From: Bilabrum cf. latius
Lineage: Eukaryota
Direction of reading: 5' to 3'
DNA length: 64,000 bases
Assembly: GCA_965178125.1 (NCBI GenBank)
Contig: OZ237764.1
Span: 434,001-498,000 of the forward strand
The position numbers and the translations under genes are program-made. Position 1 is the first letter of the stretch. The number at the start of each line of letters is the position of its first letter. Shown here one piece after another: positions 1,154 to 57,965 of the stretch. The notes beneath the pieces are model-generated. The model saw nothing but the letters and a program-made list of their open reading frames with translations, was not told the origin of the DNA and made no database searches.

Positions 1154-2758
1154 TCAAGAAATGATGCACGAACCGGGGCGCGGATTAGGCGGCAATGGGC
1201 CCGCCCTACCGGCCCCCGGATAAGAGGGCCCCGCTGACGATTGGTAACCACTTGCGTGCGATGGCATCCCCAGGTTGGGAAGTGGCCTTGGCCTTGCGTG
1301 GGCGATGGGAGGCCGGCCTGGTCTCGCCCCGTGATGCGTCGAGTGACCGGTTGCTGGTGCACCACCTTGCGCTGCGCCAGGCACCCCGTTCACTCCACTG
1401 CTCTGGTGAATCGGCTCGAAGTTGCCATTGCAGTACGTTGTGTCCCCCTTGATATCGTCTAGCCGCTCCCACACAACCGACGGCGCACCCTGTGCCAGGC
1501 CCTGGTCAGTCACGAGAAGGAACACCCTACCTTTGTGCACCGTCATGGTGTTGTAGTGTAGGTTCCTAAAGAATACCGCGACGTCGTGCTCCGCCAGCGA
1601 GTTCTGCAGCGCGACCAGCCCTGGCATCGTGATTTGCCCAGCGGTTTCCCGGAGGAACCTGCCCACTGCCTCCGACTGCACCGAGCGCGGTATTCGGGGC
1701 GATTTCGATTCAGAGGCAGATCCGCTGCCAGATACTTCGGCGGGCGGTGGCAAGCCTGTATCGGTACCTGACGATGCCGCTGCTGCCCCGTTTGCTTCCG
1801 CTTGAGGACCACTAGAAGCCCGCCGAGCAGCAGAGCGCTCTGTTGCCGCGCTTCCGGTGGCCGGCTGTGTGCTGGGTGTCGATCCACTAGAAGATAACAA
1901 TGGTACGTCCTGCCGTTGAGGAGCACGAGGGGGTTCGAATGGAGCAGCTGCTCGGGAGGACCCAATCCCCGGCTTGCTCTCCTCCACGGAAACAACACCA
2001 CTGGCACTGCCGGCGGCAGCTGGGATGCCAGATGTGCTTTCATCTGGATGCGACGGGACCGTCCCACCGGAAGCCTTGGCGCTGTGGGATTCAGTCCCTG
2101 GCTTGTCATAGACATTCCCGAGGTGCTGCTCGTACGTTGGGAGCGATGGCGGGACTGATGCAATGGGACCATCTGCCGAGCTGGATTGCATAGCAGCCGC
2201 CGGTGCGGCCTAACTCCCTTCTGTACAAAATAAAGCTACTCCTGGCGTCATTGGGGACACAGCTAGTTCGGTGGCTTTGTTGTATGTCAGCGTTTCTATC
2301 GAAATTCCCAGCGACTGCAGCTCTTCGCGAGTTCCGCCGCCCATCACCCAGGCATGAAGAATCCGCAGGCCCAACAGCTCGACAAGTTGCAGTTCAGCAG
2401 TAAGTTCGCATGACGATGGAGACGAAAAGCCTAAGTTTAAGTCCATTCCATGCTGCAACCGCGGCAACAGAGCGACAGACTCCGCAAGTACATGCTCTAC
2501 ATGACCTGAGGCCTCCCCGCTCGACTCTAGTTTTCTCGCTATATCGAAAAGGTAATTAGCTAGCATCTCTGCCAGAACACTCGACGGCAATCTCATTTGT
2601 TTGACGTGGGCATCAGGAATTTTAAGATTACCGCGAAGCAATAAGCAATTAGATGCAGCCACCAGCGGGCATGGCCCATTCTTGTTCTAGAGAACGATGG
2701 TTCGAGTCACTCCAGCTGTATGCACAGACTTAAGGGCGTGATACTTGTCGCCCTCCAT
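1154..2758 (-). CDS. MINDY-1/2 (FAM63) family deubiquitinase with C-terminal CaaX
   Basis: ATG 2758. IVL[TAG]NKNGPCPLVAASNCLLLRG catalytic Cys motif, LQHGMDLN, HAWV, VFFRNLHYNTM (catalytic His), LVTDQG, VVWERL. Ends CIIS-TGA. In-frame TAGs at 2689-2687 and 2212-2210. Confidence 0.92.
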
Positions 2759-2885
2759 GGACGATATATACTGGTGGATGAATTAGTTTACTGGAGCTTT
2801 CCGCGATATTTCGGCGAAGTCTGTGTTGCGTGCTGATATCGAAAATAATAATATTTAGCGGCACCTTCCCCATGCACTATAAATC

Positions 2886-3161
2886 ATGGATACAAAGAAC
2901 ATCCACGAAAAAATAGACGAGGATTGCGATAAAATGTTGGAAGCCATGAAGACTGTCCTGCAAGCAAGCAAACTTGGTGGTGCGGACAGGTTCAAGCCGG
3001 CTGAATTGCAAATCGCTGCAGCAACGCAACAGATCTCAACTGGGGCGTAGGGGCTTCTTGGTGTAGCCTCCTAGCTGCGAGACTCATCAGCAAGTGCAGG
3101 CGTCTCAAGTGTGCGTGAAACTGGCTCCGAGACCGCTGAAGGACACAACTCCACCACGTGA
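2886..3161 (+). CDS. Small helical protein, Mediator subunit MED22-like (91 aa)
   Basis: MDTKNIHEKIDEDCDKMLEAMKTVLQASKLG...ELQIAAATQQISTGA[TAG]GLLGVAS[TAG]LRDSS...TGA. The two-helix pattern resembles Med22. Absent from the ORF track because of TAGs at 3048 and 3072. Confidence 0.5.
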
Positions 3162-3218
3162 TCCTAGTACGTGGTACCAATCCGGTGCCAATCAAGAACT
3201 TTTCGTAGTTTAAAAGCA

Positions 3219-4830
3219 TCAATCACTAGAGATAACCGGATTGCCAGCACTTGCTCCGGGTGAAGCGCCGCCTTCACCTTCAGCGACCGTGGAAGTCACT
3301 GCCGTAGCCTCCGGCCTTGCTGCAGCAGGCGGTGCTCCTCCGCCACCACCAGATTCGCCTGGTCCAGGGACTTCCCACTGCGGCTGCGCCTGGCCACTGG
3401 TGGCACCTGCAGCGTTTGAGCCGGGTACCCCGTGGTACTGACCGTGCACGGTGCCGGCGCCGGCAGCGGCTGGCGCAGTGGCGGCGGGTGCGCCGTGGGC
3501 GGGTGGCGGTTGGTGTCCTGGGAGACCCTTGCTCGCTTCCCCCGCGGAGGCAAGCGGCTGTGCCTGGCCATGTGCAGGGGGCTGTGCCTGGTCATGTGCC
3601 TAGTGCTGGTACTGCGGCTGGGGCTGGTACTGCGGCTGGGGCTGCGGCTGTGCCTGCGCTGCGTATTGCTGTGGAGCGCCTGTGTAGGGGCCAGGGGGCG
3701 GTGGCTGGTGGGACGGTGGCTGCTGCTGCTGGTACTGCTGGTGTTGCTGCTGCTGGTGCTGCTGCTGCTGGTGCTGCTGCTGCGGCGGCGGTGCCCACTG
3801 GCCCTGTGGATGTCCCTGTGCTGGCGCCTGGCCTGTTGCTGGGGGTGGAGGGTGCCCCGTAGCGTATCCCGGGGACATCACCATGCCCTTGCCTGCGTCT
3901 GCCCCCGCTCCGGGGAGGGGTCCCGCCCCCGGCATGGGGTCCATTCCCGGGTGCACCCCGGGGGTGCCTGGGGGAGCCATAGATGCCGCGCCAGGGGCTG
4001 CCCCTGGGATGGCACCGCCCTGCGTGGCAGCGGCCTGGGTTGCAACCGGTGGAGGGGGGAAGAGAGGCACGTCTGGCAGCCTCCTTACCACCCCCGTGGC
4101 CATGAATGCCTCGATCCATGCGTCCAAATCGCCCTCTGATGGGAGGCAAATTTCCCACGCGAGTCCGGCTGGACGCCTCAGCACCACAGAGTATGGCGAG
4201 CTGAGCTGCGGGTTGACGAGCCACGAGGACATCCCGTCTCGAGGGGCGAGCTTGAGGCCACGCTAAAGGGAGCAGTCATCGAGCAGGAACGCGCCTTTTG
4301 GCTCGGATTGGGTGTGCGTAGCCTGCGAAAACGAACTATTCAAGCGTAGTACTGGACCATCATTCATGCTGGCACTGCAAAATGCATTAGGTAGCGATCA
4401 TTTGAAGGAATGCAGGGCCGAAGCTGCTGGGCCTCACGTAATACAACAGAATGCTCCCCCTCTGAACCAAGAATCGCCTCTGGAAATTTGCCCCAGCCAC
4501 ATATTTGTTGACGTATCCATATGCAGCGGGTTTTCTATAGTCGGAATCGAACCCTTCGAGAAGTGGTCTGGTGAGGACCACATTTGGGTGTGTTTGCGGC
4601 GCCGGAGCCGGAGCCGCTTGGCGGGGCTCAGACTCAGTAGCTGTAGCACTGGTGGCGTCTGCAACGCTTCCGGCAGCAGTACCTAAATCTGATGAACTCC
4701 CTGCATGCTACAAATGCTGTGGGGTTGGGGATGAGGTCGCCGGAATGCTAACAGATCTAAACTCTGGTGGACTCTACATTCCAGCAGCACCTTCTCCCTG
4801 ACTTGAAGCATGTGCAGCAGGGCTATCCAT
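3219..4830 (-). CDS. PH-domain protein with Q/P-rich tail; one intron (4323..4437)
   Basis: Spliced product AYGYVNKYVAGANFQRRFLVQRGSILLYY|ATHTQSEPKGAFLLDDCSL[TAG]...EICLPSEGDLDAWIEAF fits a PH fold. TAGs at 4776, about 4713, 4265 and 3602. Ends TGA 3221-3219. Start is ATG 4830 or upstream ATG 4965 (uncertain). Confidence 0.75.
4323..4437 (-). other. Spliceosomal intron (115 nt)
   Basis: GTGAGG...TTTTCGCAG; removal restores the PH-domain frame. Confidence 0.8.
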
Positions 4831-4977
4831 TGTAGATACGCAGGATACGTATGAATTCACCTGCAAAGCTTGTGCAAGGCAGTCTTGGGGTAGACTGTAG
4901 CTGGAGGAAGGATCCGACGATCTGGCGGCTCCGGACGAATTTCTTGACTGGAGAAAGCATGTCATTTAAATAGGTGC

Positions 4978-7900
4978 ATGGCTCTCGCCCTAGCTTTGTT
5001 TGTCATTAATTTCGCGCCAATTAGCTTTGGGGCTCGCGTGTCTCGTCTTGATGCGCCGTTACACCTTCGTGTGTCCGGATCTCATCTGCCGACCGTAGTG
5101 AACGACCAGGTTGCATTTGCTGTTGGCTCTGATGGCGGCACAGACAGCGATTTGTGGGGCTCGTCTGTTGTTGGAGCGCAAGTGATTGTCAATGAGCTGT
5201 CTTGGGACGGCGCGGTTGCCGCCTGTGCCTGGGACTCGGGCATGATCGTAATCCAATCCCCGCAAGAGCTCAGCTGGATCAAGTACGCAGGAGAACCCCT
5301 GCAGACAAACACTAAATACGCCTGGAAAGCGCGTATTTGGACCGATTCCGCCGGCCCGGATGCTCCCAGTCCGTACGCTGACGGACCGGAATTCCAAACG
5401 GGACTGCTGACCGAGCAGGACTGGAACGGTGCCGAGTGGGTAGGAAACGCAGTCACCAATCGTTCCATGCCGGAAAGCAGCGCGTCCCAGCTACTCTTTG
5501 ACGTTGAGTTCAACATTCCGGCAGGCGCAACTCTGCAGCATGCGTCCTGTTTCGTCTCGGGTCTGGGCGCCTATGCTGGCTGGCTGAGCGGCGTGCCCCT
5601 TGCCCCCGACGAGGTGCACGCAACTGTGACGGAATGGAGGAACAGGACCTTGTACGACGTGATCGACTGCACAGAGGCGCTCTAGCAGGCGCTGGCAGGG
5701 ACCGATGGCGCGGGGAGCCCTCTGGTGGGCGATTCCAGGGTCACGGTCGCATTCGAAATGGGCCGGTGGTGGTGGGCCATCTGGAACGATTACTTCTACA
5801 ACCCTCCATTTCCCATGCCACAGGGGCCGAGGATGGTCAGATTTGCCATCCAGTGGCAGACCCAGAACCCATCGGCGAACGGCACGGCCATCTCACGGGC
5901 ACAGGACGCCCGGCTGGGGGCAGGTGACCTGATTGAGGACGACATGCACCTGGGCGAGTTCAGGAGCGGCTAGAGGGCCACTCCGGGGTGGACGCAGAAG
6001 GGGTTCAACCCAGGTGGGACGCAGTGGCGGGCGGCGGACAAGCTGCCGGGGCCCACTGGAGCCATGGCGGTGACGCAGGAGCCCCCCATCCGGGTGCAGG
6101 AGACCCTCTTCCCCGAGTTTCTGGGGAGGAGGGGGGACCAGGGCCAGCTGGTGTTTGACGCGGGGAGGGAGGTCTCTGGACACTGCATGCTGGTGCTGCG
6201 GGCCGAGACTGATGCAGATGGTGCGGGGACTGGTGGTCCTGCCAGCGGGTCCGATTGGTGCACGGCCGGCACGGTGGTCAAGACCATCTATGCTGAGACT
6301 CTCTACGACAATGGCACCGTGATGCCCACACCCACGGTGCCTGACCGCAAGCATGGCGGCAGGGAGCAGCAGGTGGCCCGGTATGAGTGCGCAGGTGACC
6401 CAGGCTTGGACCCTCCCGTGGTGCCCAACCGCTTCATGTACACTGGCTATCGGTACATCGGGGTAGAGGGGTGGAAGGGCCCCTCGCCCTCCCAGTCCAA
6501 CCCCGTGCTCAAGTGCCTGTCCTTCCACACTGACCTGAAGAACGCTTCCGAGCTGGAGCTGGGGCCCGAGCTTGAGGATGCCTCGGCATCGGACCAGAGC
6601 GCCGTGAGTGCGGGGTATGCCCTGACCCGAGTGGTGAACGCCACCCGTGCATCCGGCGTGCTGAACTTCATGTCTATCCCCACGGACTGTCCCACGAGAG
6701 AGAAGCGGGGCTGGATGGGAGACAGCGGGGCGGCTCTTCTCTTCATGGCGGCTGCCTTCGACATGCAGGCCCCTTACAGGAAATGGCTCACCGATATCCG
6801 GCAGGGGCAGTCTCATGCGACCCACAAGGGAGCCGTGGGCGACATGGAACCCTCGATCTTCAACTCTGCCAGCGGGGCTTACTACGGCGAGGTGCCCTGG
6901 GGGGCTGCGTACCCGCTGATATTCGACTACGTCTGGCGCCACTACGGCGACAGTGGCATCCTCGAGGAGCACTACCAGGGCGTGAAGGACTACGTTGACC
7001 TGCTCCTGGGGTTCACCAACCAGAGCACTGGCGTGTTTATTGCGGATGCATTTCCAGGCACGGCGTACGGTGACTGGTGCGCTGCCCGTAACGTGACTGA
7101 AGGGTGCGCGCACGTGTCCAACGACATTGACTCCTATTTCCTTCTGCTGGGCCTGGACGCCGTGACTCGAGCGGCTCACGCCATGGGCGACGCACCCAGT
7201 GAGGCAAAGTACGGCAAGCTGGCAACGCAGCTGCGGCTGTCGTACCACGATGTGTACTACGACCAGACCACGGGTCAGTTCAGGGACCCTGACCTGCCGG
7301 CAAAGACCGGTCGAACAAGGGCGGTGAACATCCGCCCGCCACTCCAGACATCACAGGCAATCGGCCTAAGGCTCGGTGTGCTTCAGGACCCGGCCGAGAA
7401 GCAGCGTGCTGCCGCAGTGCTGAAGCAAAGCGTAGTTGATACCGACTACGCGATGCAGACCGGGGTGGTGGGTGCAGCTGTCCTCACAACCGTGCTGCAG
7501 ACCGAGGGCTTCGAGGAGGAAGCGGCCCAGGTGCTGACCAGGACGGGCCTGCCTTCCTACTACTGGATGGCCACCACGGGGGGAAGCACCATCTGGGAGC
7601 ACTGGTTCGGATCGTACTAGAATGGGTCCTATGCTGGCGGTTCTTGGGCGCACATCATGTTCGGGGGCTCCGTGAGCTTCGCTTACACGGGCATCGGCGG
7701 CATCCGGCCGGTAGATGACTCGGCCGTGGACCCGTGGGGCCAGGTGGTGGTGGCACCCAGGCCAGACCTGGTGGGCGTGCAGTGGGTCAGCAGCTCGAGG
7801 ACGATGGCGAGGGGCATAGTGCGGGCCAACGTGTCTGTGCCTCTGCCGCAGGAGAGCGAGGATGGAGCCGGGACGGTGACACGGGTGCAGGTCAGCGTGC

Positions 7901-8211
7901 CTCTGGGCACCAAGGCGCGCGTGATCGCGCCGGTCAGCTCCATGGAGTCCTGCAGCGTATTGGAGCGGACCAGCGGATAGGGAGGACAGTGCAGCAGCGC
8001 AGTTAACCAGCAGGGAAGCGGTGGAAACGAGGACCAGAACTGCGGTCGGTGGCACGTTGCGTTCGGCGATCGTGCAGCTGTGCTTGCCTCGCTGTCTGGG
8101 GCGGACGCAACCCAGCAGCCTTCAAGCTTGCAGAGCAGCAGCTCAGTCGCGCCTGTCATAGGCCTGACTCTCGGTAGCGGAACGTACGACCTGGCGGTGA
8201 AGTGCGCGTGA
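4978..8211 (+). CDS. Secreted alpha-L-rhamnosidase, GH78 family
   Basis: Signal-peptide-like N-terminus, YAWKARIW, FQTGLL, FMYTGYRY, SIPTDCPTREKRGWMGD, YGDWC, TIWEHW, SWAHIMFGG, C-terminal GSGTYDL. Four ORF pieces in one frame joined by TAGs at 5683, 5971, 7618, 7978. Ends TGA 8209-8211. Confidence 0.92.
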
Positions 8212-8539
8212 TCCGTTGGGAGTGGCACGGCCTGGTGAGAGGCCCTGTCCTTTTGACCCCACAGATCTTGTGGTGTGTTTTTATAAGTACATCCAGGATA
8301 GTACATTGGATCAAGTGCACCAAGAGATGAAGATCCATAGGATTAGACACAAGTCACCCGCTTTCATCACCTTGCGGGAAAGCAGTTTGCCTTGGCCTAG
8401 GCCCACCTCATGAATCCGTCTCATGAATCCGGAATTTGGATCTGATCCGTCCTTCGGATCCGGATCATACCGCCGGACTCTCCTTAGTCACATACCCATC
8501 CAGTCCCATGGGTCTCCCCTCAGCACGCTATTTTCCTGC

Positions 8540-11500
8540 TCATCTCTCTATCCTCCCCTCTTTCCCACCATTGTCGATTTGAAGGCCTGATCTTGACCTT
8601 GAGTGGCTTGCCTCCGCCAGCAGCCGTAGCACGCGCGGCAGGAAACGTCTCCGCAGCTTGGTCCTCCGTAGCTGGGAGGTAGGGGTGGCTAAACCCGTTC
8701 TGGAGCTGAACGCGCGCGTGGTCAAATACAGCATCCGAGGCATCTCACACGGCAGCAGCCCCGCCTCTTCCGCCGCCTTCCGCATCAATCTCATCGCATG
8801 CTACTGCACGTGGCTGTGCCTGCACAGCGCCCTAAGGTCGAGCTGAATGTCCTGTGTTGCCCTCTCGTCAGCACCAAAGAAGTACGCGGCCTCGTGGTCG
8901 ACGCTCACGCACGCCGCCATGCCCCACGCAGGCTCCTTGGCCACGTGTGTCCCGAGCAACCCACGGTTCCCCTTGAGGATATAGCCGTGGTCTGACAGGC
9001 GCTCGCCCCTTAGATTCAACAAGTACACGCTCTTGCACAGCTATGATGCGTGGCATAGCACGGCTTCCACCTCCTCGCCGACGCAGTAGAGCCTCCTGCC
9101 ATCAGGGGCCCTTGCAGCGCACGCGATGTCAGGGCGATGGTCCGGCTCGCGCACTGCCGCACTGCGCGATGAATCCCCGTCATAGCTGCTGTCAAGTGCA
9201 TTCGCGCCTGACGCATGCGTGGTCGTCACATCCGCCGCTTCATACACGCTGAGGATGTCGCCGAGCACCTCCACCCGCTGGCGAGGCCGTAGCAGCAGAC
9301 CGTCTGTGGAGGGGCACGTGATGCGCACGTCAGGCGCAACAGCTTTGGACCTTTTCGTGGCTTTCATTTTCTCTGCTCCATCCAATGGTGACTTATTCTG
9401 CTTCTCGGACCCTATTACGGGCCCCTTCGTGTTGCTAGTTCCAGCGAGCGCAACAACCACGATGCCACACCTGTCGTAGATCTATGGGCCAGGCATGGAC
9501 TGTGCTCCCATGGGAGTTCGATTACTCGGATCGTCTCCTTCCGTCCCGGTTTCCTAATCGATGCAGCCAGATAGGTCCACGTTGGAGCCTCGACCAAACG
9601 CGTGTGACGAGTACACCCCCTGGCCACGGCCCTCGGTGGCCGCCGAGCCTGTGGCGCACGAGGCGTCGTCGTCGTCCAACCCACGGGTTGTTCTCGAATC
9701 CCCGTACATGCAGCGCCCCACCATCTCCATAGCAGGGTGTACCCCTGGCACCTTGGCGTCACGAACCGGATTCGTACTGCTACTGGGCTCTAGTCTAGCC
9801 TTTGCACCTGTGCCGCTACGTTGTGCTGCCTTGGCTGCCACGGCACGCCGAAGCGATCTGGGCTGCAATATGCACAGCTCTCCAACGACTGCCTGCAAGG
9901 GACTACCAGCAGGAGCATAGCCACTGGAAACAGTCGGGGGGCGGCCTCGCCTCATCGATGATATTAGGGCCTGGGCGCACCGTGGTGCCACTGTGGCGTT
10001 TGTGCCGCCCAGCCTGAACGTGCCGATTCCACATGCCTGCTAGTGGCTTGCTTTTCCCTACTCTTCGCCATCCAACTTCCGTGGAAGAGCCTTCTATACC
10101 TTTTCTGTCTGCTACTTGCTATTTTCATCGTTTTCACCGCGCTGAGATTCCTTAGTAGCCGGTGCATCGGACCCTCGGTCGGGGAGGGGTAACCGGGCCG
10201 AGACTTCCACTGGGAGCACACCCAGCTGCAGACCCGGCACGCCGGACAGTGTCACGGAATACTTGTGGGGATCCAGCTTCCCCTTGAATTGACCCGCGAT
10301 CATCCGAATACCCCTGGAAATGATCTTTTTCGATTTGCGCAAGGATCCGCTGCTTGAGCTGAAAGAAGAGGATCCGTCTTCTCGGCTGCTATGGCTATTG
10401 TCTTCTTCTCTGAGAACCTGCGGCATCGATACCGCTACAAACCCGTATTCAGGAGCCGTGATACCCTGCACCATGGGCACGCACATGGACAGCTCAACTG
10501 TCTCGCGCACCGCTGGATTCACGCTCAGGGTGCGGCAATGGCTGCCCATGACAAGGATAAACCGGAATGCGCTGGATCCGATCACCCTCTGCAGGCCCCT
10601 GAACACGAGCACATCGCCCCACGAGTCCTGCCTGAGGTACCCAGGGTGCCCCTTGCTCCTGTACTCCTTCTGTTTCTGCTGCACCGCAAGCTGGTATGCC
10701 ATTCGGTAGGGCAAGGACCAGGACCGCTGGATCCTCTGGAGGTGCAGCGACACTGCCTGCAGCATCCTGCTGGATGCCGTGAGGAATGTAGGCTTCAGGT
10801 CGTGGATGGCAGCTGCCAGCTGGTCAAATCTGTTCGGGGGTACAAACCCGATGGACATGCCCAGTCTCAGCGCCAGGAGCACCATCGCCCTCTCGCCCTC
10901 GTACGCGAGCGGCAGGTACGAGCAATGAACGTCTTGCGAGCGCAACAGGCCGCCAAGTGGGTGTGCCCTCAGTCGGAGCGCCATCGCACACAAACTGCCC
11001 TACGTGTGGTCGATCCGTCTCACGCCGTCATCCTGAGTCCATTCGAACATGACGCTGGCAGGGGCCTCTGGGCTGTCTGGTGCCCTATGCCGGAGGGGGT
11101 ACGCCCTGCCCGCCGCGACCACGAACGAGTAGTCTCTCAGCTCCACACCGGCTTCATGCGCCAAGATCTGCTCGTCGTATCCAAGAGGCTGCGTCTGGAT
11201 GACCAGCTTGATGCCGGGGCAGTGCCCACTCGCGATCGCCTCGATGATCACAGGCACCCAGGACCTGTCGCACACGATGGCACCAAGGTTGCACAAATCC
11301 AGCACCTCGGTCAGCAAAGCGGACGAAGGTGCGTGCAGTGCCACAGACACGAGCTCAAAGCACCAGCATGCGGCGTCCGTGATCACCCACTGGGGGCAAT
11401 TCGGAGCCAGAATTCCCACCTCTGTTCCTGGTCGCAGACGGCCTAGGTGCACGAGCCCCGACCCGAAAAATGACGCCTTCGCCTGCAGCTCGCTGTAGCT

Positions 11501-14500
11501 CAGCCAGTCGAAGCCACCGCTCGTCACACTAAGGCTGGCGTCCGACGGGTCGATTCCGGGTGCAGCCCCCGTCGGGTTTCCTAAGGCGTCTCTGTACCCA
11601 AAGAGGGCGGCACCCTGCATCAGTAGATCGTAGGCCGTCTCTGGGACGGGCATTACCGTGGCAGTGCACCCTGTTTGGGCCGTAGTACTGAGAGCCTCCC
11701 TCGCGGTCTGAAGTCCTGCTGGTGCCAGCTGCCTTGGGACTGCCTGTGCCACCATAGAAGCGCTCGGTCCATGTCCGACTTGGATGCGCACTGGCATCAG
11801 CGATCGAACACGACCGTAAATACCTGCGCGTGATGCAGCATCCAAGCTGCCTCCACTGTCGAACCCACACGCGCTTCCACTTGATAGTTGTCCAAACAGC
11901 CAGTGCCCGGCATGCGCTGCATTAGAGGGGACCGCCACGGGCCTGCCATCCCCGACCCGCCTCCACACATCACTCGTCGTCAGTGGCCGAAAATACCTCC
12001 CACTCCCGTGCACATCCCGGCGCATGCCTCTGCTGTGGGGAGAGACGTACAGCTGTACGGGCACAGGGAGCTGGCCCCTGCCAACGCTGAACAGAGACCG
12101 CCACAGGCAGGCCCACGCCCTCGGTGGCTCGCACGAGCGCCACGCGCACCAGGCCGATGTCCCCATGACACAGACGATCACTGCCACGGCGCAAATAAAC
12201 TATAGTGCATGAATCCAGCTCATTGAATGGCACAGAAACTCTTCCAAGCTGGCTTCGAGACCATCCACATCCTCGATGTCAACACTGGCATCAGCATCCG
12301 GACGACCGACCACGGAATCACCTTCGTTTTCGTGCAACCTCCCGATACCGGTCCAGTTCCGCAGCTAATTGACGTCATCCTTATCATCTTGGTGTTGGTT
12401 GAGCACAGGAGACCCAAGCCCGATTCTACGAGCGGCATACTCCAACACACTCTGCAGCGTGCAGCTCTGCATGCCCCTGGCCAAGCCGCAGGCCATGGTG
12501 TCCGACGCAAGGTGGACAATACCACCACCATGCGATGCACCTGCATCCTGCGCGCTGCAGGAGGCCAGTGGGACGAGAGCTCCGAGGCCGACGACCAGCA
12601 CGGCAGCGACCAGCAAGGCAGAGCACAGGATCGAGGGCAGCACCATCGACGAGCCGTGCCTGCCCTTGCCAGTGCCGTACTGATGGAGGGCAGCAGAACT
12701 CAGCGGGGCAGGAAGCAGGTTCTCTTCCTTCTGTGCGCTCAGTACCTCTTGCAATGCGATGATTTGCTCCAAAACGCGGTCGGGGTCGGGCAGTTGCACC
12801 CGTCCGTCTACATCCCTGCGATCGAGTGTTCGAGCTCTTACTCCAATCGCATCCTGCCCGCTCGTCACACTCAATACAACGGCACTTCCCGGGTTGCCTT
12901 GCAATCCCTGGGAACTTGCACCATCGCGTGAAGGCCTCGGATGCGTCGGTGGGAGCGTGTTTTGTTGGCTTGACATCCGTGTGGAGCACCCGCTCCTGGA
13001 CTCTAGAGCCAGAGCATCCTTCGACCTTGAGAGCACAACTCCTCCATTACGCACAGAATGCGGGTGCGACGAGATGGATGCTTGCCTCTGTCCTGCTCCA
13101 ACGGAGGTAAACGCTCGCGCGGCACCGATGGCGGTGAGCGTGTGCCTCACTCGTGTCCTCCACCCAATGGCTGGCTGGTAGTCTGCATGCGTTCCACTGT
13201 CGCTTCCTTGCTCATCGTTCAAACCTCGGCTGGTGCTAAATCTCCCCAATGGCGCCCCTTCGTCAACACGATGGGCGCTGCTTCCACGCGCCGTGGCAGG
13301 GTCCTGCAGCCGAGTCAGCTGACCCATCGAGACCAAGCCCCCGCTCAGCGAGCCCCACCCTCCGCTCGCGGCCCGCTTCAGCGAGGTCTCCACGACCGTC
13401 CTCAGCTGCCTCGCCGCAGGAGGTGAATCTAGCTTGCCCATAGCGACCAGGGGTGGAGGCAGCTACTGGTCCCCTCCTTCGCTTGCTCCTCGTTCGGAGT
13501 AGGCTGGCAACGCTGTTCCGGCCTCGGTTCCGGAGTGGCTCTAAGAACGCTTGGTTCGCGGCTGCAGCAAGGCGGATGATCCAGCCAGAGCATGAGGCAC
13601 TCCTGCAACATGCATGCTACCGTCTCTTGCTGATTCCTGGTCGTTCGCCGCAATACCGTCGCTGCTACCTTCCCTGCTGTGGCCTAGTGCCAGCGGAGTG
13701 CCATTGAATCCATCGCCAGCCCCGCCTGCGATGTCGTCAGCATCCGTGTCACCATCGCCCGCTGAATCAATCATGTCCATGCCAGACACGTCGTCGCCTT
13801 CAGCGCTGCCGTCGGATTGCTTGGAAAGGCCATCGCCGCCCCGACTTCGAGATCCGGCGGCAGCCCAGGGCGAGGAGGTGTCGGCCGCATGGCCGCGCAA
13901 AGACAGGCTCCGCAGCATATCCGGACTCGGAGCCGAAAGGCGCCGCCGACGCGTTCCAAACATCTTCTTGCGAGGGGAAGTGCTGCCCCTACCTGCTGGG
14001 CTAAGACGGCCTGCTGCGATTCGGAGCTCGCGCTGGACGGCACCGGACCGACTTGAGTGCAGCTCTTCGATTCGACTATCCCGCGGCTCGTTCGGAGGTG
14101 GAGCAGCGCCGGACGGAGAAGCCGTGCGAGGCCGCCAGCTAGCAGATGAAGACGCAGCGTTCAATTTCCACAGTGACGCCTCGTTTATTTCATCGATGCC
14201 TTGCATGCCAGACCGGAGAAGACCTCGCCACGAAGTCTGGGGAGGAGCGTCTGCAAGCCAAGGCGTCGCGTTGATGCGGGTTAGATCCGATGGAACCTGC
14301 TGCAACTGCTGCTGTATGAAACGATGGCGGAGCATGGGCGACTGCTGCAAGCTCGGCTTGATCGCAGGCGATTGCTCATGCAGCCGTTGCTGCATAGAGG
14401 CCGAGTGTGAACCTTGCCTATCGTCGTGATCTCCACCAGTCAGTTCATCTGCATCCCATGCCACGTCAGTGTGTTGTCGCCGAATCAGCACCTCGATGGC

Positions 14501-17500
14501 GAAATGGTCTGACAGGAACTCATAGGGGCGCTTACGATGGCTGTTGCCGGTGCCTGACAGGAACGCCGAAGAAGAGCTCGACGGACTGCCTGAACTGCTT
14601 TTGGTGTGCTTCCCCCCTCCTCTATGCTATGGGCGATCGAGGCCCGAAACAGCCGCGGCGACCTTCCCAGAGCCGCTCCACTTCTACTGGGCCGCCTTTG
14701 CATGGCTCCGGTGATCCACCCGGAACTCGACCACCCTCGTCTCTTCCACGATTGGCAGCAGCGACGAGGCGGCTCCCTGGCACCACCACACGATGTCCAG
14801 ACGCATGGGATACTTGTGCTTGAGGGCGTACCGCATGTCCTGTGGAAACTGCAGGCGTGGAGGCCGGGTGCTCACATGGCGCCCGAATCGTAGTTTGAGC
14901 AGGTCTGCAATGCCGTACGCAGCAGCTCCGGCCTGAGCCCCGGCCGGGGCTAGTGCCCTGACGAGGTCTCTGTACTCATCTGACTCGCCCACCCCGTCAG
15001 CAGCGGTGTACAGCGCCAATCCGCTGCTCTCCGATATGTCGCTCGCGATTGCATCTACGTTGAAATCGCCCGTCAGCATCCACGGATGCGCCTTGCCGTG
15101 CGTTTTCCTGCGAATGAAACGGACCAGCTCGGCAACCTGCATCGACCTGACGTCAGTGTACGAGCTGCCTTTGCCTGCAGACCGAGTATGAGTCGCCTGC
15201 AGATGGACGTTGAACACATCCACGCACGTGCCCTGAGCCAGCTGTACCCTGGCGAAGATCACCCCTTTGGCTGCCCCCGCATCGAGCGCCACCCCGGCAG
15301 AAAATGTGAAGCTGTCCGACTCCACGATGGGATGCTTGGAGGCGATCAGCAGTCCAGAGTCCGTGATGTGCCCTTTGAGCAGGTTGGGCATGGGAGACCG
15401 CACGAAGTGGCTGTAGCCTCCCTTCACCCGCAGCAGCTTCATGAGTCTCTCCTGGTTGCAAATAGATGGCATGAACGGAGACCGGAAGATCTCCTGCAGC
15501 GCAAGCACGTCATAGATGCCTGTGGTAGGCATGCGTCGGCGGCTTCTCAGCGTGCTCAGCTGGCCGCACATACTACGAAGTCCACGGGACATGGCTGTCC
15601 ATCCGCTAGTCGCTCCTTTAGCCTTGCTTCTCTTCCTGCTGATGGAGTGACTGGCCCGCACTGAGTCCTTGGGTTCAGCGGCCACTGGCGTGCCGTCTCC
15701 CGCTTGCATGCCCTATGGATTCGCTGCGGCCCCTCTAGGAACTGCGTCTCGCTCCGATGGTACAGGTGAGGGCCCAGGATACCTGCCCCGAGGCTCGTTC
15801 GATGCATTGGCCCCAGCGATATCGCTGCCACCAGACAGGCCCGGCAATCCAGGGCCCGCCCTTGGTGTGCTGCCATCACTCTCGAAGCCTCCCTCTGAAG
15901 ACCCGTCACCGTCCGAGCCTACACCAGAGAAGAGGCCAACTCCATCTGGGTCCGAGTCGTAGGACACTCCTTCGCTGCCCACACGCGAATCGACTCCCGC
16001 GTGCGCCCGCCATTCCTAGTCCATGCGATCCGCCAGCTCATCCGGCTCGGCAAGCCGCAGCTTGTCCTCTGCGCTCCTCTGCCTCATCATCATCAGAGAT
16101 GGCGTCTCCGAAGCCTGACTCTGCCCGCGATCACCGTTTCCAGGGTAGGTTTCTGCACCGAGCTGCTGCAGATCAGCGGCATCAGCAGAGGCAGCAGCAG
16201 AGGCAGCAGCAGAGGCAGCAGCAGAGGCAGCAGCAGAGGCAGCAGCAGAGGCAGAGGCTGCTCGGAGCTCCTCTCTCTCGTCGTCAGCAAGCTCGTCATC
16301 ACCGTCATCATTGCCATCTTGCTGGATCCAACCAGTGCACCGGTTAACGCCCTGACGGCCCTAACCGGAAACACCACCGTCTCTGCCACCAACATACGTC
16401 GCCGTGCCAGGAGTACTCGCCCCACTCCTCGCACCCGCACCTGCACGTGCACCTGCGCCTCCCCCCGATTGCAGCTGCCCTGTGCCAGCCTACTGTTCCC
16501 CCAACGGGCTATCCATAGAACCTAACTCCCTAGGCCTAGTGCCGTGTGCCTTGTGTCTCACTATTCTTCGCACGAAGTCTCTGAGCCTCTGCGTCCCGTA
16601 TTGCCCGTGGCCCGCCACGAAGAGCTCGACGCCTGCTGCCAGCACGTTGAGGTTGTATGACAGTATTCGAAACTCGTCTTGCTCCTGCTCCTGCCCCTGC
16701 TCCTGTTCCTCCTCCTGCTCCTGGTGGTCAGCTAAGTCTCGCTACCGACTCTCTTCAACCACAACCTCGGAAACATGCTATATATGGTCTTGGTCTGGTG
16801 CACTCGCGTGAGTTGTACCAGGTGCACTGGATTGAGTAGATGTGACCCCATTGCGCCCTTTCTATCCGGTGCCGTGTGTACCATTGTCAGATATCCTGTG
16901 TGGTTGGGTGTCACCACCACCACCGCAGTTGTCTCTAGTCTATGCCCCGCTACTGGCCTGCCTACCTGGTGAATCCACGCCTGCATCCATCGCTGCATCC
17001 GCCGTTCCATCGCTCACGTGGGCGGCCACACCATCCACTTTGCCGTGGGCCTTGTCCCGCGAGGCATCATCATCGTCCCCCGATCGGAGCCCCGCCAAGC
17101 CATCCTCTAGCCTCCTGGCCAGCCCAGACCCGTCCTGCCCGAAACTATGGCGCCTCCCTGCGCCCGATTCTTTGCCTAAATCGAGCAGGTCCATCGTGCG
17201 GGCCCTCCCACGCCTCGAGGGTGATGACCCGTCTGCCCCGTCCGCACTCGTCACACCAAAATCACCCAGGAACCGACCGGGACCGCCGCCACGCTGGTTC
17301 TGCAGGCTGCTGGCGATGATATTCTGCTTGGTCCGGAGCCGCTGCAGGCGCCGAAACAGAGCAACTATACCGCGCACTGCAGTGCGGTGCGACAGCCCGA
17401 ACCGGGCGAACTCGCGCTCCTGCCATAGGTTCACGAACGTTCCCTGTGACTCGCTGCTTGAGGCGGTGGCAGCCGCCGGTGCTGTTGCTGGGCCTTGCTG

Positions 17501-18220
17501 AGGATTCTGGGCCAATGATACATTAGAAGGAGTTGTTGTGCCTGCAGACACGCTGGCATGCACGCTAGCAGCCACAGGCTTAGGCAGGCGGGCCCGGGGC
17601 GGCTGGGCGTACACCGCTGTGACATCCTCCACTCGCATCCAATCGACCCTCCTTGCCGTGGATCGGCACACCCTGCGGCGCTCGCTGTGCGACATGGCCC
17701 ACCAAGTGCCATCTCGCATGAGCTGCTCCGCGGCCTCGGCCTGCCGCTGCAGCTCCCTGTTGACGTGCCCGAGATCCGGCTGAAGAAGCTTGCGATTATC
17801 ATCCTGGAATGCGACGTACTGCCACACAACGAAAATGATACCGCGGTCAGGCTGTCGAAACTCGACTTTTGCAAACAAAGTTGCCCTCAAACGGTCAGCC
17901 ACCGCAGGAAATCCGAGCTGAAACAGCTGATACGAAAGTGTCTCGCTGTGGTCGCGTTCGCCACCGACGCGCTGCCCGCCGAGCAGTCGAAGCTCGCCGG
18001 GGAATGAATGAAAGGCTGGTTGGTCACGAGTACTACGAACAGGATCCAGCACATTGATTTGGCTCAACAGAACCTCATCCATAGGATCTTGTGAAGCAGT
18101 TGCAGATGGGAACGACCGAGCTGATGGAAACGTGCGGCGCACCTGTGCGGATGAGCGCAGCGCTGCTAGCAGAGCTACATGACGAACCTCAACTTGTGAG
18201 CTAGAGCCAGAATGCTCCAT
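8540..18220 (-). CDS. Giant 3226-aa protein: EEP/neutral sphingomyelinase-like domain, transmembrane segments and degenerate long-chain acyl-CoA synthetase-like domain
   Basis: Single frame from ATG 18220 to TGA 8542-8540 with about 23 TAGs and no TAA/TGA. EEP motifs FRILSYN, DVLALQE, DSGLLIASKHPI, AAKGV, NVHLQA, TGDFN, RLD, LSDHFAI. ACSL-like WLSYSE, GILAPNCPQW, SYLPLAY, GLATPTSQLRR. Confidence 0.85.
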
Positions 18221-18288
18221 TGCTGCGCGATAACCAAGTCAGCTTGTTGCGTTGTGACGTGACGAAACGATTTGCCGGATGGATTCAG

Positions 18289-18318
18289 CGAACCTCATAC
18301 CGAACCTCGCCGAACCTC
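18289..18318. promoter_or_regulatory. Triple CGAACCTC direct repeat in a 155-nt divergent intergenic spacer
   Basis: CGAACCTC at 18289, 18301 and 18311, between ATG 18220(-) and ATG 18376(+). Regulatory role is inferred from position only. Confidence 0.35.
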
Positions 18319-18375
18319 GTGACCGTTCCGGCAGCATGACAGGTGGTGGATAGCGAAGCAACTTCCCGCCGATCT

Positions 18376-21300
18376 ATGAGTGACCGCGCATTGGACAACG
18401 CGCAGCGTGACGTATGCTAGGTGGTAGCAGAAACTGTATTTAAAATTATTGAGGCGGCACTGGCGTACAGGCTCAGTTCAGATGGACTCGTGGCCTTGTC
18501 GTAGCACGACCGACCGCAACCAAGAATGGGCGTGTAGGTAAGCGAGCTCAAGAAGGTTCGACGAGAGCTTGCCCCGTGGCAGAAAGCCATACGAAAACCA
18601 CTAACTGTAGAAATGCTTTGGCCGGTGGACGGCGGTGCCGGCCGCTGCATGGTCGAGCGATACTTTTTCCAATTTATAGACCACGATGCCTAGGAGGATC
18701 ACAGGCCCCAAGGGGCCCCCTTGCCAGACTCTGGCTTGTTTTATCGCGACGCTGGTATTGTATTGAGATCCGCTATAGCAATGCTGGCGTGTTTGCCTGG
18801 TAGGAAACTTGTGCGCGCTTCCGCAAACGAAAGCATCTACGAAACGCTTGGAAGACCGCCACCCGATTCGTCCGGCAGTGCGGCCATTAAACCGGCATCT
18901 GGGGCCGCAGAGGGCGGAGCAGGTATGCTTTCACCGCAGCACGGCGGATCGCACGCGGCACCGCCCGTTTCAAAGCCGGCAGATCAGCCGCAGAGGCCGC
19001 GGATGGCCTATCGCCTTCTCTTGTCGCATCCCGCCCGACCTAGCAAGCGAGCGGCCAAGTTCCCCGCATGGGCCGACGTGACAGAGATCCCATTTCCATT
19101 GCTATCGTGTTCCTTCGGGCAGCTCGTAATGGCCGTCTCTTTCATAAGCAACGTGGAGCCGTTGGTGCGAGCACCGCCCGCTCCCTCCCTCGAAGCATCT
19201 GCCGCGCGCGTTGCCGAGGCGGTCGCAAGGGAGGGAGGGGTGGGGGCGGCAAAGGGGGGGGCGGGTCCGTCTAGCTCCGATCCAGGAGAAATGCCTCACC
19301 ACGGGATGATGCCTGGGGGTACTGGCACCGGCACAGCGACTGCGACCGCGACAGCCACTGGTTCCAGATCCGCGGCAGGCTCTTCTTTGGCCGGTTCTTC
19401 CGAGGCTAGGGGTTCCGCAAGCGTGGGTCGTCCTCCGGAGAGTGTAGGTCATCAAACGGCGGCACCCACCTCTCACGCGGGCAGCAACTAGGTACGGGGG
19501 GAGGGGGGACCAGGGGGGTCTGCTTCTGCCACGGCGGCTCAGGCGAGGAAGGTGTCAGTGTCCGGCGTTTCCGTGTCCGTGTTTGAGGGCTACGCCACGG
19601 AGCAAGGGAAGGAGTCTCCTCCCAGCGAACGTTCGTCAGGGGCCGCCCCGGGTACCTCCCAGCCGGTGGCCATCCCCGGCGCGGGGTCTCGAGGGACGGG
19701 TGGGGTTGCGGGTGCAGCGGTGGGGAACAGGAGGCGGACCAGCAGCGGGTCCGTGCTTGGCATGGGGATGGGGATGCTGAGCGGGGCAGTGGCTGGGATC
19801 GGAGAACTGGTCGGGTCCGCGGGGGGCCGAAGTAGCGTGCCGTTTAGCACTTCGTCTGGCTGGGCGGGGGGTGGCCGAGCCGCAGTAGACGTGAAGCCGC
19901 AGCACCCCCCCATTGGGTCCATGCAGCCAGAAGGGGGGGTGCCACACCCCTGGGGCGGGGGCTCGGGCTCCTCCTCCTCCCAGGGTGGCAGAGGCGGGGC
20001 ACTGCCCGGGTCCCTTGGGCAGCCAATGTCGATGCCGTCCTCCGCTGGTGGTGTGACGAGTGCTGGCGGGGGCAGGGGGCTCGGGGAGGCGGCACGGCAG
20101 GCGCTGACGGGGGAGGAGGGTGGCGGTGTGACGAGTGTTGATCGTGGTGGGAAGCTGGGTGGGAACTCCTCGTCGATGTCGACCGGTGGATTGCGGGGCA
20201 GCCCGGGAGTGGGGTCTGGTGGGGCCGGGCCTGGCCGTGGTGGGTACCGCGGGGGTGCAGGGGGGCTTAGGGGGCGATCTGCGAGCGAGCAAATCGGGCT
20301 CACGGGTCGATCGACGGGTGCATCGCACGGTGGTGCCGGTGCGCAGGCGCGGCATGCCGCTTCCAGCGGCGACATGGACGAAGAGGAGGACGAGGAGCTA
20401 GAGGGCGTGACGGGAACGGATGCAAGTCCTGGAGGAGGTCTAGGACGTAACCCTGGGGGACTTGGGGTCATGGCCCCCACAGCGGGGGGTGAGCCGAGGG
20501 CACCATCCCAGGCCTCCTCCCTTGGCTCCTCCCAGCAAGAGGCGCGATCGCACTCGTCACACCCCGGCATGGAGGTCCCCGGCATCGCGGGATCCCGGGC
20601 CACTCCGCGCGGGGGCAGGCGGGTGTCCCAGGACATGGATTCGGAATCGAATCAGGTGGGCGCGGCGGCCGATGCAGCAGCTGCGGGCGTTGGTGCAAGT
20701 GCCGGTACCCGTGCAGGGCAGCAGCAGCAAGACGAGGAGATGGGGGTCGGGGCTGGCACAGCGGAGGGCACAAATTCTAAGGGTGGGCAAAGTGGCACGG
20801 CAGGGGGGGTTGAGAGGCCGCAGCGTGGTTCGTTCAGTAGCGGGTGGTCGCAGGAGGAGGGGGGGGATGCAGCCCCCGTACGGGGGGACTCCCAGGGGTC
20901 GCTTGGGGTCGGGACACCACCCCCGCACTCGAGAACACGCTCGTCACACAGGCGCCACAGCAAAACCGGAGGCGCGCAGCACTCGTCACATCTTCCCAAC
21001 AGGACACGGTTCCTGTCATCCTCGGAGGCGGAATCGCCAGCCTTCGCGCCGGCCTCGCCGCCTCTGGCTGGGAAGGGTCGGCGCTCGGACAGTGCCACCA
21101 GCAGCCCGAAAGACGTCGTGTCGGGTGTGACGAGCGCGGCCCACAGCCACCGGCCGAGTCCGCTGGCAGGACCGTCACCGGCGACTGCATCCAGCGGCAG
21201 AGATAAACAAGCTGCCGGCTCCGAATCCATCCCACCGGCTATGGCGCTGGGCCCGGCAGTGCACGGCACTGCAGCACGGTAGGATGACCCGGAATCGGAA

Positions 21301-23784
21301 TCCCAGCGGGGCTAGAACGCCACCTCGTCGCGCGGCGGGCCGGCTGCGGGACACGCGAGCCAGCGGACCGCAGCACTCACGGCGAAGATCCACACTCGTC
21401 ACACCAGCCAAGGCTCTGACTTGGACGCCTCGGGCAGCAGTGGCTCAGGCGGCGGCGGTGGCGGAGGAGGGGGGAGTGGTGCAGGTGCTGGTGTGCTGAG
21501 GCAACAGGCACCCACTACTGCTGGCGAGGCCGAGCCCTCGTCACACCGCTCGCAGTCGCTCCCAAGCTCTGGCCTAGAAGCCGCTCGTCGGGCCTCGTTG
21601 GCGAGCGTGGAGCGTGGAGCCGGTGCGGGGGCAGTTGCTGCCCAGGGGTTTGGCAGCACAAGCTCAAGCTTCGGGGGCGGCATAGCCGGGGTGGGCGAGC
21701 TGATTTGGGGCTCCGGATCCAGGTCCAGGTCCAGGTCTGGCAGTGGGAGTGGGGCGGGTGCCTCCGCTTCGGAGAGTGGTGGTCCCTAGAGGCGCGGATC
21801 CGGAGCCGGGTTCAGCCGTTTCCTTGGCCGGATCACGAGCGCGCTGGCCCCACCGATGGTGCCTGTGAGGCCGGACACACCACCACAACCGTCCTCCTCC
21901 TCCTCGCTCTCGCACCACGCCGGTCCCACGGGTTACTATGGTTCCCATGGTCACTCATCACAGTAGCAGTCCCTGTCGCAGGTGCAACGCACTGCAAGTC
22001 GGCAACGGTCTTGGTCGCACAGCTCACACAGCAGCAGCAGCACGGGCAGCAGGGGAGGGGGGGGCACCCACAGCGGGAGCCAGCACTCGTCACACCACGA
22101 TGCCCTGGCACCGCCCACTCGTCAGCGGGCAACGAGCGAGCCGGACGCAAGGACACCCCCGTCCCGTGCCCGCGGCGCCGCGCAACGCGGTTCCGCAGCT
22201 GAAGCAGAGGACGTTCGCTCCGCCGCTGCAGCCGCTGGGTCCCTGGCTGGTGTCACGAGTGCATCCCGGCGCCAGCAGCTGCAGACGCCCCACATCGGCC
22301 CCATGGACGGACCCGGAGCCGAATTGGTCCCGCCGCCGCCCCTGCCCATGGGAGCGAGCGCGCAGGATCGAACCCGGCTGGCGTGGCAGGTGCAGCAGAC
22401 CGTGGTCGAGGTCGGCTCTGCGCTGGAGGCGAACGACTCGGAAGCAAGTTCCGCTACTGGATTGCGCGGCGCCGATAGGTCGCTCCCGCCCGGTTCCGTC
22501 GCCGATTCTCGCGCGTCGGGGCAGCAGCAGCAGCGGCGCGGCAGCCGCCGCAGGAGGGGGGGTGGGCCCGAGGGCCGCGGCAGGGTGCGGGAGGTGGGGG
22601 GCGACCGAGGCCGAGGACGCCGCGACGGCGAGGACAAACATGAGGATGAAGATGAGGACGACGTTGTTCTCTCGAAAGGAGAAGGAGAAGGAGACAGGCT
22701 AGGGGCTCAGGGGATTGTGTCGGGCAGAGCCGACCGCCCGGGGTCTCCGAATTCTGACTCCGAGTCGTTCCAGTCGATGTCATCTGATGATGTGGGTATG
22801 CTCAGAGCTGGTGCTGGTGCTAGCGCTGATGGTGCTGGTGATTCGGGCCCTGGATCGAGAGGAGCAGGAGAAGGAGAAGGAGAAGGAGATGGAGGAGCAA
22901 TCGAGATCGACTCGGCCTCCCTCCCTGTGGCCAGCGGAGATGACACTGGGCCCACCTCCACACCTACCTCAACCGACGGGAGCTCCAGCCCGAGCCCAAG
23001 CGCCAGCGCCAGCCCCAGCGGTAGTGGAAGTGGCAGCGACCAGGGCGCGATGGATCTGGCGAGGCACCTGTCCGCTGGATCCTCTGCGAGCTAGGCGAGG
23101 AGGGTGGTGGGGGATCATGCCAGTGATGATCCTGCGGCGAGGACTGGGAGCCACGGAAGTGACGGCGGGAGCAGGCGCAGCAGCAGCAGCGGCTGTGGCG
23201 GTGCCAACGCAGCAGCTCCCGCCAAGATCCAGGGAACAAGCGCATAGAGGCAGCCGAATGCGCGCGCCTCCTCCCCGCTGGGGCGAATGCGCGGCGCCGC
23301 TGCGGAACCTGTAATGGATCAAAGGGAGACGACCAAATCGCGCGGCGCCCAGCAGGTTCCGCTGTGCCTGGCATCGCTGGCCGTCGATGCTGATGATGAT
23401 GACAATGGCACGGTTGACTGGCAAGTCGATCGCCGCGATGGCTTCGTGGCCGCACCTGCGGTGCATCGCATGGTGGCGCGTGCCGCTGTGCTGGATGACC
23501 CGCTGGCGGTGGACGTGTCAGCAATGCTGACGAGTGGTAGAGCTGACGATGGTGTGACGAGTGCGGCGGCCGATGCCATGCAGCGGCTCGCAGACCTGGC
23601 CTATGCCCTCGCGGGCGACGACGAGGTGCTTGCGAATTGCCTGGCAGATGCCGCCGCGGGGGAGCGTGGTGACGATGACGGCGAGAACAGTGAAAGCGGC
23701 AGTTCTGCTACAGGTGCCGAGGCGGGGACTGGTAGCGGTGGTGGCAAAGCGACTGCCGTCGGTGAAGACGAAAAGAGCACGTGA
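18376..23784 (+). CDS. ATG13-like protein (N-terminal HORMA-like domain, long disordered tail), about 1802 aa
   Basis: VVAETVFKIIEAALAYR...LAPWQKAIRKPLTVEML...MVERYFFQF...FYRDAGIVLRSAIAMLACLPGRKL...FPLLSCSFGQLVMAVSF follows the order of ATG13 HORMA elements. All ORF pieces share a frame, joined by TAG only. Ends TGA 23782-23784. Confidence 0.65.
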
Positions 23785-23833
23785 GCAGCGTGTGCTTTCT
23801 GGTGCTTGGACTTGATCTGGATCGACCATAGGG

Positions 23834-57930: not shown

Positions 57931-57965
<35 letters not shown>

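Follow-up and report, generated by a model that had tools for sequence, protein, structure and literature searches.

An in-frame TAG at the oxyanion-hole glutamine of a MINDY1/2-type deubiquitinase gene and evidence for UAG as a glutamine codon in the nuclear genome of a probable stramenopile

The genomic stretch of 64,000 nucleotides analysed here, referred to as the window, contains a deubiquitinase gene of the MINDY1/2 type in which the triplet TAG occupies the position of an essential glutamine codon. This arrangement raises the question whether TAG is a local defect of a single gene or a sense codon in the nuclear genome of the host. The gene is located on the minus strand at positions 1154..2758 and comprises an intronless reading frame of 534 codons, extending from the ATG at 2758 to a TGA at 1156-1154. 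Residues 6-447 of the deduced protein, translated with X at both in-frame TAG triplets, matched the Pfam MINDY_DUB profile with an E-value of 6e-56 and a PF04424 score of 190 bits (cut-off 27). A genome-wide search with PF04424 returned this gene as the sole match, without a second MINDY1/2 copy. The nucleotide sequence on which the original prediction was based, CTC TAG AAC AAG AAT GGG CCA TGC CCG CTG, was retrieved from the minus strand between 2692 and 2663, and the TAG (2687..2689, minus strand) was confirmed as codon 24 counted from the ATG at 2758, with Cys30 encoded at 2671-2669.

The deduced protein contains all of the catalytic Cys, His and Thr residues along with the column of the oxyanion glutamine. 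The catalytic Cys30 (2669..2671, minus strand) corresponds to human C137, the role of which was described in PMC4942677, and is conserved in 148/148 homologs, whereas the catalytic His401 (1556..1558, minus strand) aligns with human H319 in 5JKN and is present in 148 of 149 homologs. Thr417 (1508..1510, minus strand), equivalent to human T335 and thus the third residue of the triad, belongs to a nearly invariant column and is located 16 residues past His401, which is the spacing of H319 and T335 in the Cys-His-Thr triad described for human MINDY1 (PMC8550791). The catalytic domain is interrupted by a Ser/Ala/Pro-rich insert of about 170 residues (1724..2242, minus strand), as indicated by two separate stretches matched to PDB entries and by low pLDDT values at residues 173-345. 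This low-complexity insert harbors the second in-frame TAG at codon 183 (2210..2212, minus strand), which is uninformative on the code, being placed in an unconserved column with a pLDDT below 50. A structure model derived from a 104-row alignment was confident except for the long insert; it replaced a single-sequence model of the N-terminal part that had attained a pLDDT of 38. The top Foldseek matches of the alignment-based model were all MINDY1/2 proteins or yeast YGL082W (E 1e-18 to 3e-14), and comparison with MINDY1/2 crystal structures yielded TM-scores of 0.83-0.90 by target length (E 1e-18). Human MINDY1/FAM63A and MINDY2 (PF04424; 5JKN, 6Z49) share with the deduced protein the Q-x-x-N-G-P-C motif, the catalytic Cys/His/Thr residues and the fold; they differ in that the Gln codon is TAG in the present gene, that the insert lies inside the catalytic domain and that a MIU motif was not recognised in the C-terminal tail. 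Judged from its sequence, the gene is an ordinary and intact one encoding a predicted K48-type deubiquitinase.

An alignment with human MINDY1 (5JKN) placed the Q of the peptide I-I-T-Q-S-T-N-G-P-C opposite the X at codon 24. Among the 149 homologs examined, which represent 150 hits minus the fragment P0258 starting at residue 55, Q was found in all 148 sequences aligned at this column. The query of the homolog search carried Q at codon 24, resulting in a small bias of the set toward Q, whereas X was used in the Pfam search, the 5JKN alignment and the column count; as G28, P29, C30 and P31 are likewise invariant in the same alignment, the Q column cannot be attributed to chance. The 5JKN structure, the homologs and the alignment used for the structure model agree with the earlier assignment of the TAG to an invariant glutamine. 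[quoted passage not shown] The residue had been termed a catalytic oxyanion-hole glutamine, of which the oxyanion-hole part is retained; membership in the Cys-His-Thr triad is not consistent with the assignments given in PMC8550791. Similarly, the proposal that TAG specifies Gln is in accordance with the invariant column, but a single site is not sufficient to establish a code, and it is the genome-wide count that settles on Gln: a TAG in the eRF1 gene, at the position of Leu69, would by itself point to Leu. Five TAG triplets of the window were aligned to homologs, two in the MINDY gene and three in a COPI beta' gene, and only MINDY codon 24 is part of an invariant column, as all three COPI beta' triplets fall in unconserved ones. 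The fragment P0258, a Logan protein of 128 residues that is 90% identical to MINDY residues 55-179, ends right before codon 183; its start after codon 24 and its end before codon 183 are consistent with a close relative that may have the same TAG codons.

Splicing across the TAG was examined by means of assembled contigs. Contigs of the runs X1, X2 and X3 span the triplet with 0 gaps and 0 other letters and extend 55-78 letters upstream of it, and single contigs cover the gene at 1099-2767 (X1), 1099-2746 (X2) and 1163-2744 (X3). The DNA run X4 matches at the TAG as well, likewise free of gaps and of other letters. The contigs drop rare variants, and the RNA status of X1, X2 and X3 is presumed, since none of them is recorded as RNA. 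X1 and X2, which belong to one study, contain the spliced joint of a 115-base GT-AG intron in a neighbouring gene (4322..4436, minus strand) that is absent in X4 and was not present in X3. As X1 and X2 carry this joint, the TAG is present in spliced RNA, contrary to a removal by splicing.

The 13 long ORFs of the window (1154..63999) together contain 85 in-frame TAG, 685 CAG and 159 CAA triplets, with TAG representing about 9% of the Gln codons. Twelve of these ORFs are closed, eleven by TGA and one by TAA, but since TAG was treated as sense in delimiting the ORFs, their stop usage is no independent test. A 3226-codon ORF on the minus strand (8540-18220) with exo/endonuclease-phosphatase and AMP-binding domains includes 23 TAG, and part of it is covered by one X1 contig spanning 8315-15970 unbroken. 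A bacterial-type alpha-L-rhamnosidase gene at 4978-8211 contains numerous differences at roughly half of the depth, the DNA run X4 included, which suggests a divergent allele or a second copy. On the minus strand at 24200-35465, a TPR array of at least 55 units of 42 residues contains TGC-to-TGA stops and frameshifts and looks partly decayed or misassembled.

For an independent test of the meaning of TAG, the 30 top-ranking loci were taken from each of three families (65 Ras, 95 kinesin and 43 DEAD matches), and the respective paralogs were aligned. These 90 matches contain 79 in-frame TAG, 2 TGA and no TAA. Of the 79 TAG, 72 are located in columns to which 10 or more other paralog rows contribute, and the 26 TAG in columns that are at least 60% conserved face Gln in 24 cases and Glu and Pro in one case each. 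The log-likelihood was best for Q (+58), followed by a value of -10, and the same decoding method was correct for 11 control sense codons. The switch-II Gln of small GTPases is the site of eight of these TAG. With the preceding base matched, 13.4 TAG were expected at conserved Gln, compared with the 24 observed, and this excess argues for efficient and accurate decoding. Q neighbours TAG in 16/72 and Q itself in 126/638 instances, the values for E, L, Y, K, S and W being 7-12%. The share of TAG among Gln codons depends on the preceding base, amounting to about 4-6% after G, 11% after C and 16-25% after A or T; the excess at conserved Gln persists after correction for this preference. Positions outside Gln columns were observed as well: the GluRS gene (L148, G000:C15 at about 942-945 kb) has an in-frame TAG facing W and Y in the two nearest homologs of solved structure, and only 7 of the 12 TAG in 49 stop-free units of the TPR array occupy Gln columns. 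Along with the eRF1 position Leu69, these sites may represent ordinary replacements by Gln where the proteins tolerate change.

These data make it very probable that the nuclear genome uses a code of the NCBI table 15 type, in which UAG would specify Gln, the residue suggested by conservation, and in which UAA and UGA serve as stops. In-frame UAG at conserved Gln was detected genome-wide in 24 of the 26 columns, and a sense function of UAA is not indicated, given the lack of in-frame TAA in the family alignments and of a tRNA with the anticodon UUA in the pattern search described below. The TAG at MINDY codon 24 is one site of this genome-wide code. The MINDY gene, the tRNA-CUA gene and the eRF1 gene reside on separate contigs (C30, C23 and C35), each of which carries TAG-containing genes.

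Gene ends defined by homology were obtained from the 30 Ras loci, 20 of which end with CC, CxC or CaaX and an immediate stop; the stop is TGA in 16 cases, TAA in 4 and TAG in none. These prenylation-related ends were counted by eye, and the other ten loci are partial exons or do not have the motif. In locus L085 a TAG is read through 12 codons upstream of the CaaX-TGA end, and the last internal TAG of nine window genes is located 22-352 codons upstream of the stop. Within this small sample of 20 ends, UAA and UGA terminate and UAG does not, as in table 15, and the ends at TAG (0/20) that characterise an ambiguous stop/sense code of the Condylostoma or Blastocrithidia type were not encountered. 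As only 20 ends are defined in this manner, rare termination at UAG is possible.

A tRNA gene with the anticodon CUA was detected at G000:C23:907607-907679 as a single-copy gene scoring 69.8 bits. It was the only one with CUA among 48 matches of an Rfam search in which 63 of 780 candidates were scored. The cloverleaf is its minimum-energy fold, and a T-run is located downstream. Two pattern searches of the genome revealed no second CUA tRNA gene, and no UUA anticodon occurred among the 12 hits of the first search. The second search, aimed at CUA tRNAs with an intron, returned 11 hits that all failed at the ARAGORN default score; a poorly paired candidate on C7 appeared at a relaxed threshold only and was rejected. 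The tRNA-CUA has no long variable arm and was labelled 'Pyl' by ARAGORN, which in our reading stems from the anticodon alone. In the same survey two distinct nuclear tRNA-Ile(GAU) genes were recovered (L011 on C32 and L044 on C4) and no AAU gene, the usual tRNA-Ile anticodon in eukaryotes being AAU.

Among 28 other distinct tRNAs, tRNA-Tyr(GUA) is most similar to tRNA-CUA (51/74 identical positions), followed by tRNA-Glu (43/73) and the two canonical tRNA-Gln (42/73 and 42/74), which are themselves only 55% alike; accordingly, the closest recovered relative is not a tRNA-Gln of the same genome. An overall identity of 69% is reached by 11 of 331 different-isotype pairs and for this reason constitutes weak evidence for a Tyr origin. 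Across the acceptor stem and the anticodon stem combined, tRNA-CUA and tRNA-Tyr agree at 20/24 positions, a level attained by 0/331 different-isotype pairs (maximum 17), according to a measure chosen after the alignment had been seen, and C1:G72 was found only in these two among the recovered tRNAs. Nuclear tRNA-Asp, tRNA-His, tRNA-Leu and tRNA-Glu(UUC) were not recovered in the survey, so that a closer relative may be missing, and no tRNA-Tyr gene besides the known one was detected in a dedicated search. With respect to identity elements, the eukaryotic Tyr determinants are A73, C1:G72, G34 and U35 (PMC9976931 Table 1), of which tRNA-CUA keeps C1:G72 and U35 and has G73 and C34 instead of the others. 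For Gln, PMC9976931 lists a bacterial set and no eukaryotic one (G73, U1:A72, G2:C71, G3:C70, G10, U35, G36, A37 and U38); with the reservation that the host is eukaryotic, tRNA-CUA has G73, G2:C71, G10, U35 and A37 and does not have U1:A72, G3:C70, G36 and U38. Relative to tRNA-Tyr, A73 and G34 are lost and G73, G2:C71 and A37 are gained, and the D stem is identical to the one in tRNA-Gln(UUG) (8/8 positions). A derivation of tRNA-CUA from tRNA-Tyr is slightly favored by these sequence comparisons, and charging with Gln is highly probable given the protein evidence.

The eRF1 gene is a single gene on C35 with four predicted exons bounded by GT-AG ends, 438 codons and the stop TAA; the other match of the eRF1 search was read as pelota. 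Its translation requires two in-frame TAG to be read through at codons 48 and 73, both in the codon-reading domain. In the column of codon 48, 108 of the 110 homologs have Q, and codon 73, at the position of Leu69, faces L in 105, Q in 3 and N in 2 of them. The TASNIKS motif is changed to TAVNIKS, with V in 0/110 homologs, and GNGTS to ADGTS, while GTS, E55, NIKS, S70, the YxCxxxF motif and T32 are retained. In yeast eRF1, L69A was described to increase readthrough slightly more at UAG, and N30A was without effect (PMC4381064); TAVNIKS is likewise found in eRF1b of Euplotes, a factor that has given up UGA and not UAG (PMC4695839 Table 2). Since Gln at position 69 is moreover present in standard-code homologs, the eRF1 changes are not claimed to be causal. 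A metagenome search with eRF1 exon 3 yielded no close relative, the best match being 71% over the full exon, and TAVNIKS or a TAG at Leu69 was present in 0 of the 76 motifs read in the matches.

The GlnRS gene (L147, G000:C33 at about 558-561 kb) encodes F-F-G-L where the human and Thermus enzymes have K-R-L. By position and by this K-R-L motif, the segment was mapped to the loop with Lys401/Arg402 of E. coli GlnRS, which reads G36 (PMC2978374). No in-frame TAG was found in the part of the gene examined. Plant GlnRS also has Gly at this loop position, and the Phe-Gly loop may therefore reflect a predisposition and need not be an adaptation.

Four other explanations of the TAG codons have to be weighed against the assignment of UAG to Gln. 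A local event at the MINDY TAG, be it pseudogene formation, an error in sequencing, editing of the RNA or a short intron that ends there, could draw on the pyrimidine run preceding the triplet and on three upstream GT from which in-frame introns of 39, 24 or 9 bases would result. Such an intron would remove the invariant Gln, however, and the agreement of the DNA run X4 with the RNA-type contigs refutes a local event at the contig level; the lack of a second MINDY1/2 copy and the genome-wide occurrence of in-frame TAG reduce its probability to a practically negligible level. A meaning of Leu, Glu or pyrrolysine is hardly conceivable either: the mostly-Leu column of the eRF1 gene, the single Glu among the conserved columns and the ARAGORN label can be cited in its favor, but the predominance of Gln in these columns, the loss of MINDY1 activity in Q131E (PMC4942677), the short variable region of the tRNA and the origin of the 'Pyl' label in the anticodon speak against it.

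The Tyr-like features of tRNA-CUA, namely the shared stem positions and the conserved C1:G72 and U35, along with the GluRS codon at a W/Y position, would be compatible with a reading of UAG as Tyr or as a mixture of Tyr and Gln. This reading is nevertheless extremely unlikely, because 0/26 TAG in conserved columns fall at Tyr or Phe, because TAG is enriched and not avoided at essential Gln and because, of the four Tyr determinants of eukaryotes (PMC9976931 Table 1), A73 and G34 are missing from the tRNA; low-level Tyr leakage at UAG is possible. A dual function of UAG, with Gln inside genes and termination close to the ends of some transcripts, the situation in Condylostoma or Blastocrithidia, is rated very unlikely. 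The retention of GTS, E55, NIKS, S70 and YxCxxxF in eRF1 means that some recognition of UAG may persist, and the homology-defined gene ends number only 20, but none of these ends uses TAG, the L085 gene reads through a TAG shortly before its end and the internal TAG of the nine window genes keep their distance from the stop.

The host is very likely a stramenopile and probably a bicosoecid. An eRF1 tree, comprising 41 rows chosen from 111 and thus based on one gene with one named bicosoecid, grouped the host with Bicosoecida sp. CB-2014 and unnamed rows in a clade with 99/99 support, in which the host forms the longest branch (0.85). The best named matches of the COPI beta' protein are mostly stramenopiles (46-48%), and a search with cox1 yielded no named match exceeding 78%. 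The mitochondrial contig G000:C111 (L050-L053) of 38.4 kb, with gene names assigned by reading the translations, contains tRNA-Trp(UCA), the order atp8-atp1-atp6 and a short nad11 of 288 residues, features that were described for the bicosoecids Cafeteria and Cafileria (PMC6723347). The recognisable genes of this mitochondrial genome are located on one strand, and ARAGORN found only 10 tRNA types, which implies heavy tRNA import. A second eukaryotic rDNA was present on G000:C95 (L241, L242; 17.9 kb), the 1802-base 18S sequence of which shares 77-83% identity with the 18S array on C12 (1700 bases). This rDNA probably belongs to a co-cultured or contaminating eukaryote, which may be dinoflagellate-like.

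The distribution of TAG, its presence in mRNA-type contigs, the occurrence and fold of the tRNA gene and the changes in eRF1 were observed, and from these we infer the inserted residue, the charging of tRNA-CUA with Gln and a weakened recognition of UAG by eRF1. In the proposed mechanism, the single nuclear tRNA-CUA would pair with UAG and not with UAA, would be charged with Gln by GlnRS and would outcompete the altered eRF1, which presumably still terminates at UAA and UGA. As to its origin, a duplicate of tRNA-Tyr(GUA) may have been turned into an amber reader by G34C and may then have switched to Gln identity through A73G, the exchange of U2:A71 for G2:C71, G37A and remodelling of the D stem, possibly aided by a GlnRS with Phe-Gly in place of Lys-Arg in the G36-reading loop. 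A stage at which UAG meant Tyr, or both Tyr and Gln, may have preceded the present code, and the eRF1 gene, whose codon-reading domain contains two TAG, one of them at the UAG-linked Leu69, would rely on the reassignment that it permits. That the genome represents the first nuclear stop codon reassignment in stramenopiles and that it took this unreported route, from a tRNA-Tyr(GUA) duplicate via an amber reader to a GlnRS-aided Gln identity, with a possible Tyr or Tyr/Gln stage and an eRF1 dependent on the reassignment, is a proposal with somewhat less than an even chance. No nuclear code change in stramenopiles was found in the searched literature, mostly open-access main texts and including those of PMC12152300 and PMC12153298 as far as accessible, and a term search of the Halocafeteria preprint gave no mention of a code change; the existence of an earlier report of this code is rather doubtful, though conceivable. 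The code belongs to a known type, the lineage appears to be new for it, and the tRNA is unusual.

Genetic codes in which UAG and UAA differ in meaning are rare. In the texts available, the change of UAG alone to Gln has been described without an identified tRNA, whereas the codons, tRNA-CUA, eRF1 and GlnRS can here be studied in one near-complete genome. How eRF1 loses UAG yet keeps UAA and UGA, and where reassignment tRNAs originate, are questions that have become testable. If true, a Tyr-derived Gln tRNA would represent a natural identity switch, as opposed to the expected one-base change in tRNA-Gln(CUG). In practical terms, gene calling with the standard code cuts off most genes of the host and its kin, of which P0258 may be an instance.

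Reassignment of UAG alone to Gln (NCBI table 15) has been described in Iotanema spirale, Hartmannula sinica, Trochilia petrani and Protocruzia tuzeti (PMC5304391, PMC11687900). These systems resemble the present one in the meaning of UAG as Gln, in UAA and UGA as stops, in the wide use of UAG as a minor Gln codon and in that a dual meaning was not seen; they differ in that the host is a stramenopile and not a fornicate or ciliate and has a GC-rich genome with TGA as the main stop. The UAG tRNA of Iotanema was predicted by Panek et al. as derived from tRNA-Gln(CUG) (PMC5304391), whereas a tRNA-CUA gene was found here; for the phyllopharyngeans H. sinica and T. petrani, a suppressor tRNA was reported as not detected (PMC11687900). 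Iotanema eRF1 carries T32G, while the protein of the present host keeps T32 and differs by TAVNIKS instead of TASNIKS, Gln instead of L69 and ADGTS instead of GNGTS. The ciliate suppressor tRNAs (PMC10553269, PMC11687900) and the tRNA predicted by Panek et al. share with tRNA-CUA the anticodon CUA, one nucleotide away from a canonical anticodon, and a 73-base cloverleaf. The ciliate suppressors most closely resemble tRNAs for the amino acid that they insert (PL0344, PMC10553269; PMC11687900), whereas the nearest recovered relative in the present genome is tRNA-Tyr.

The putative origin of tRNA-CUA has counterparts among amber suppressors that are mischarged with Gln. The G73 mutants of supF belong to these suppressors. 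Others are the amber derivatives of E. coli tRNA-Trp, tRNA-fMet and tRNA-Ser (PMC9976931) as well as yeast tRNA-Tyr amber mutants that accept Gln in E. coli (PMC1483225). [quoted passage not shown] The known examples are laboratory mutants in bacteria, whereas the tRNA described here would be a natural, genome-wide and eukaryotic case.
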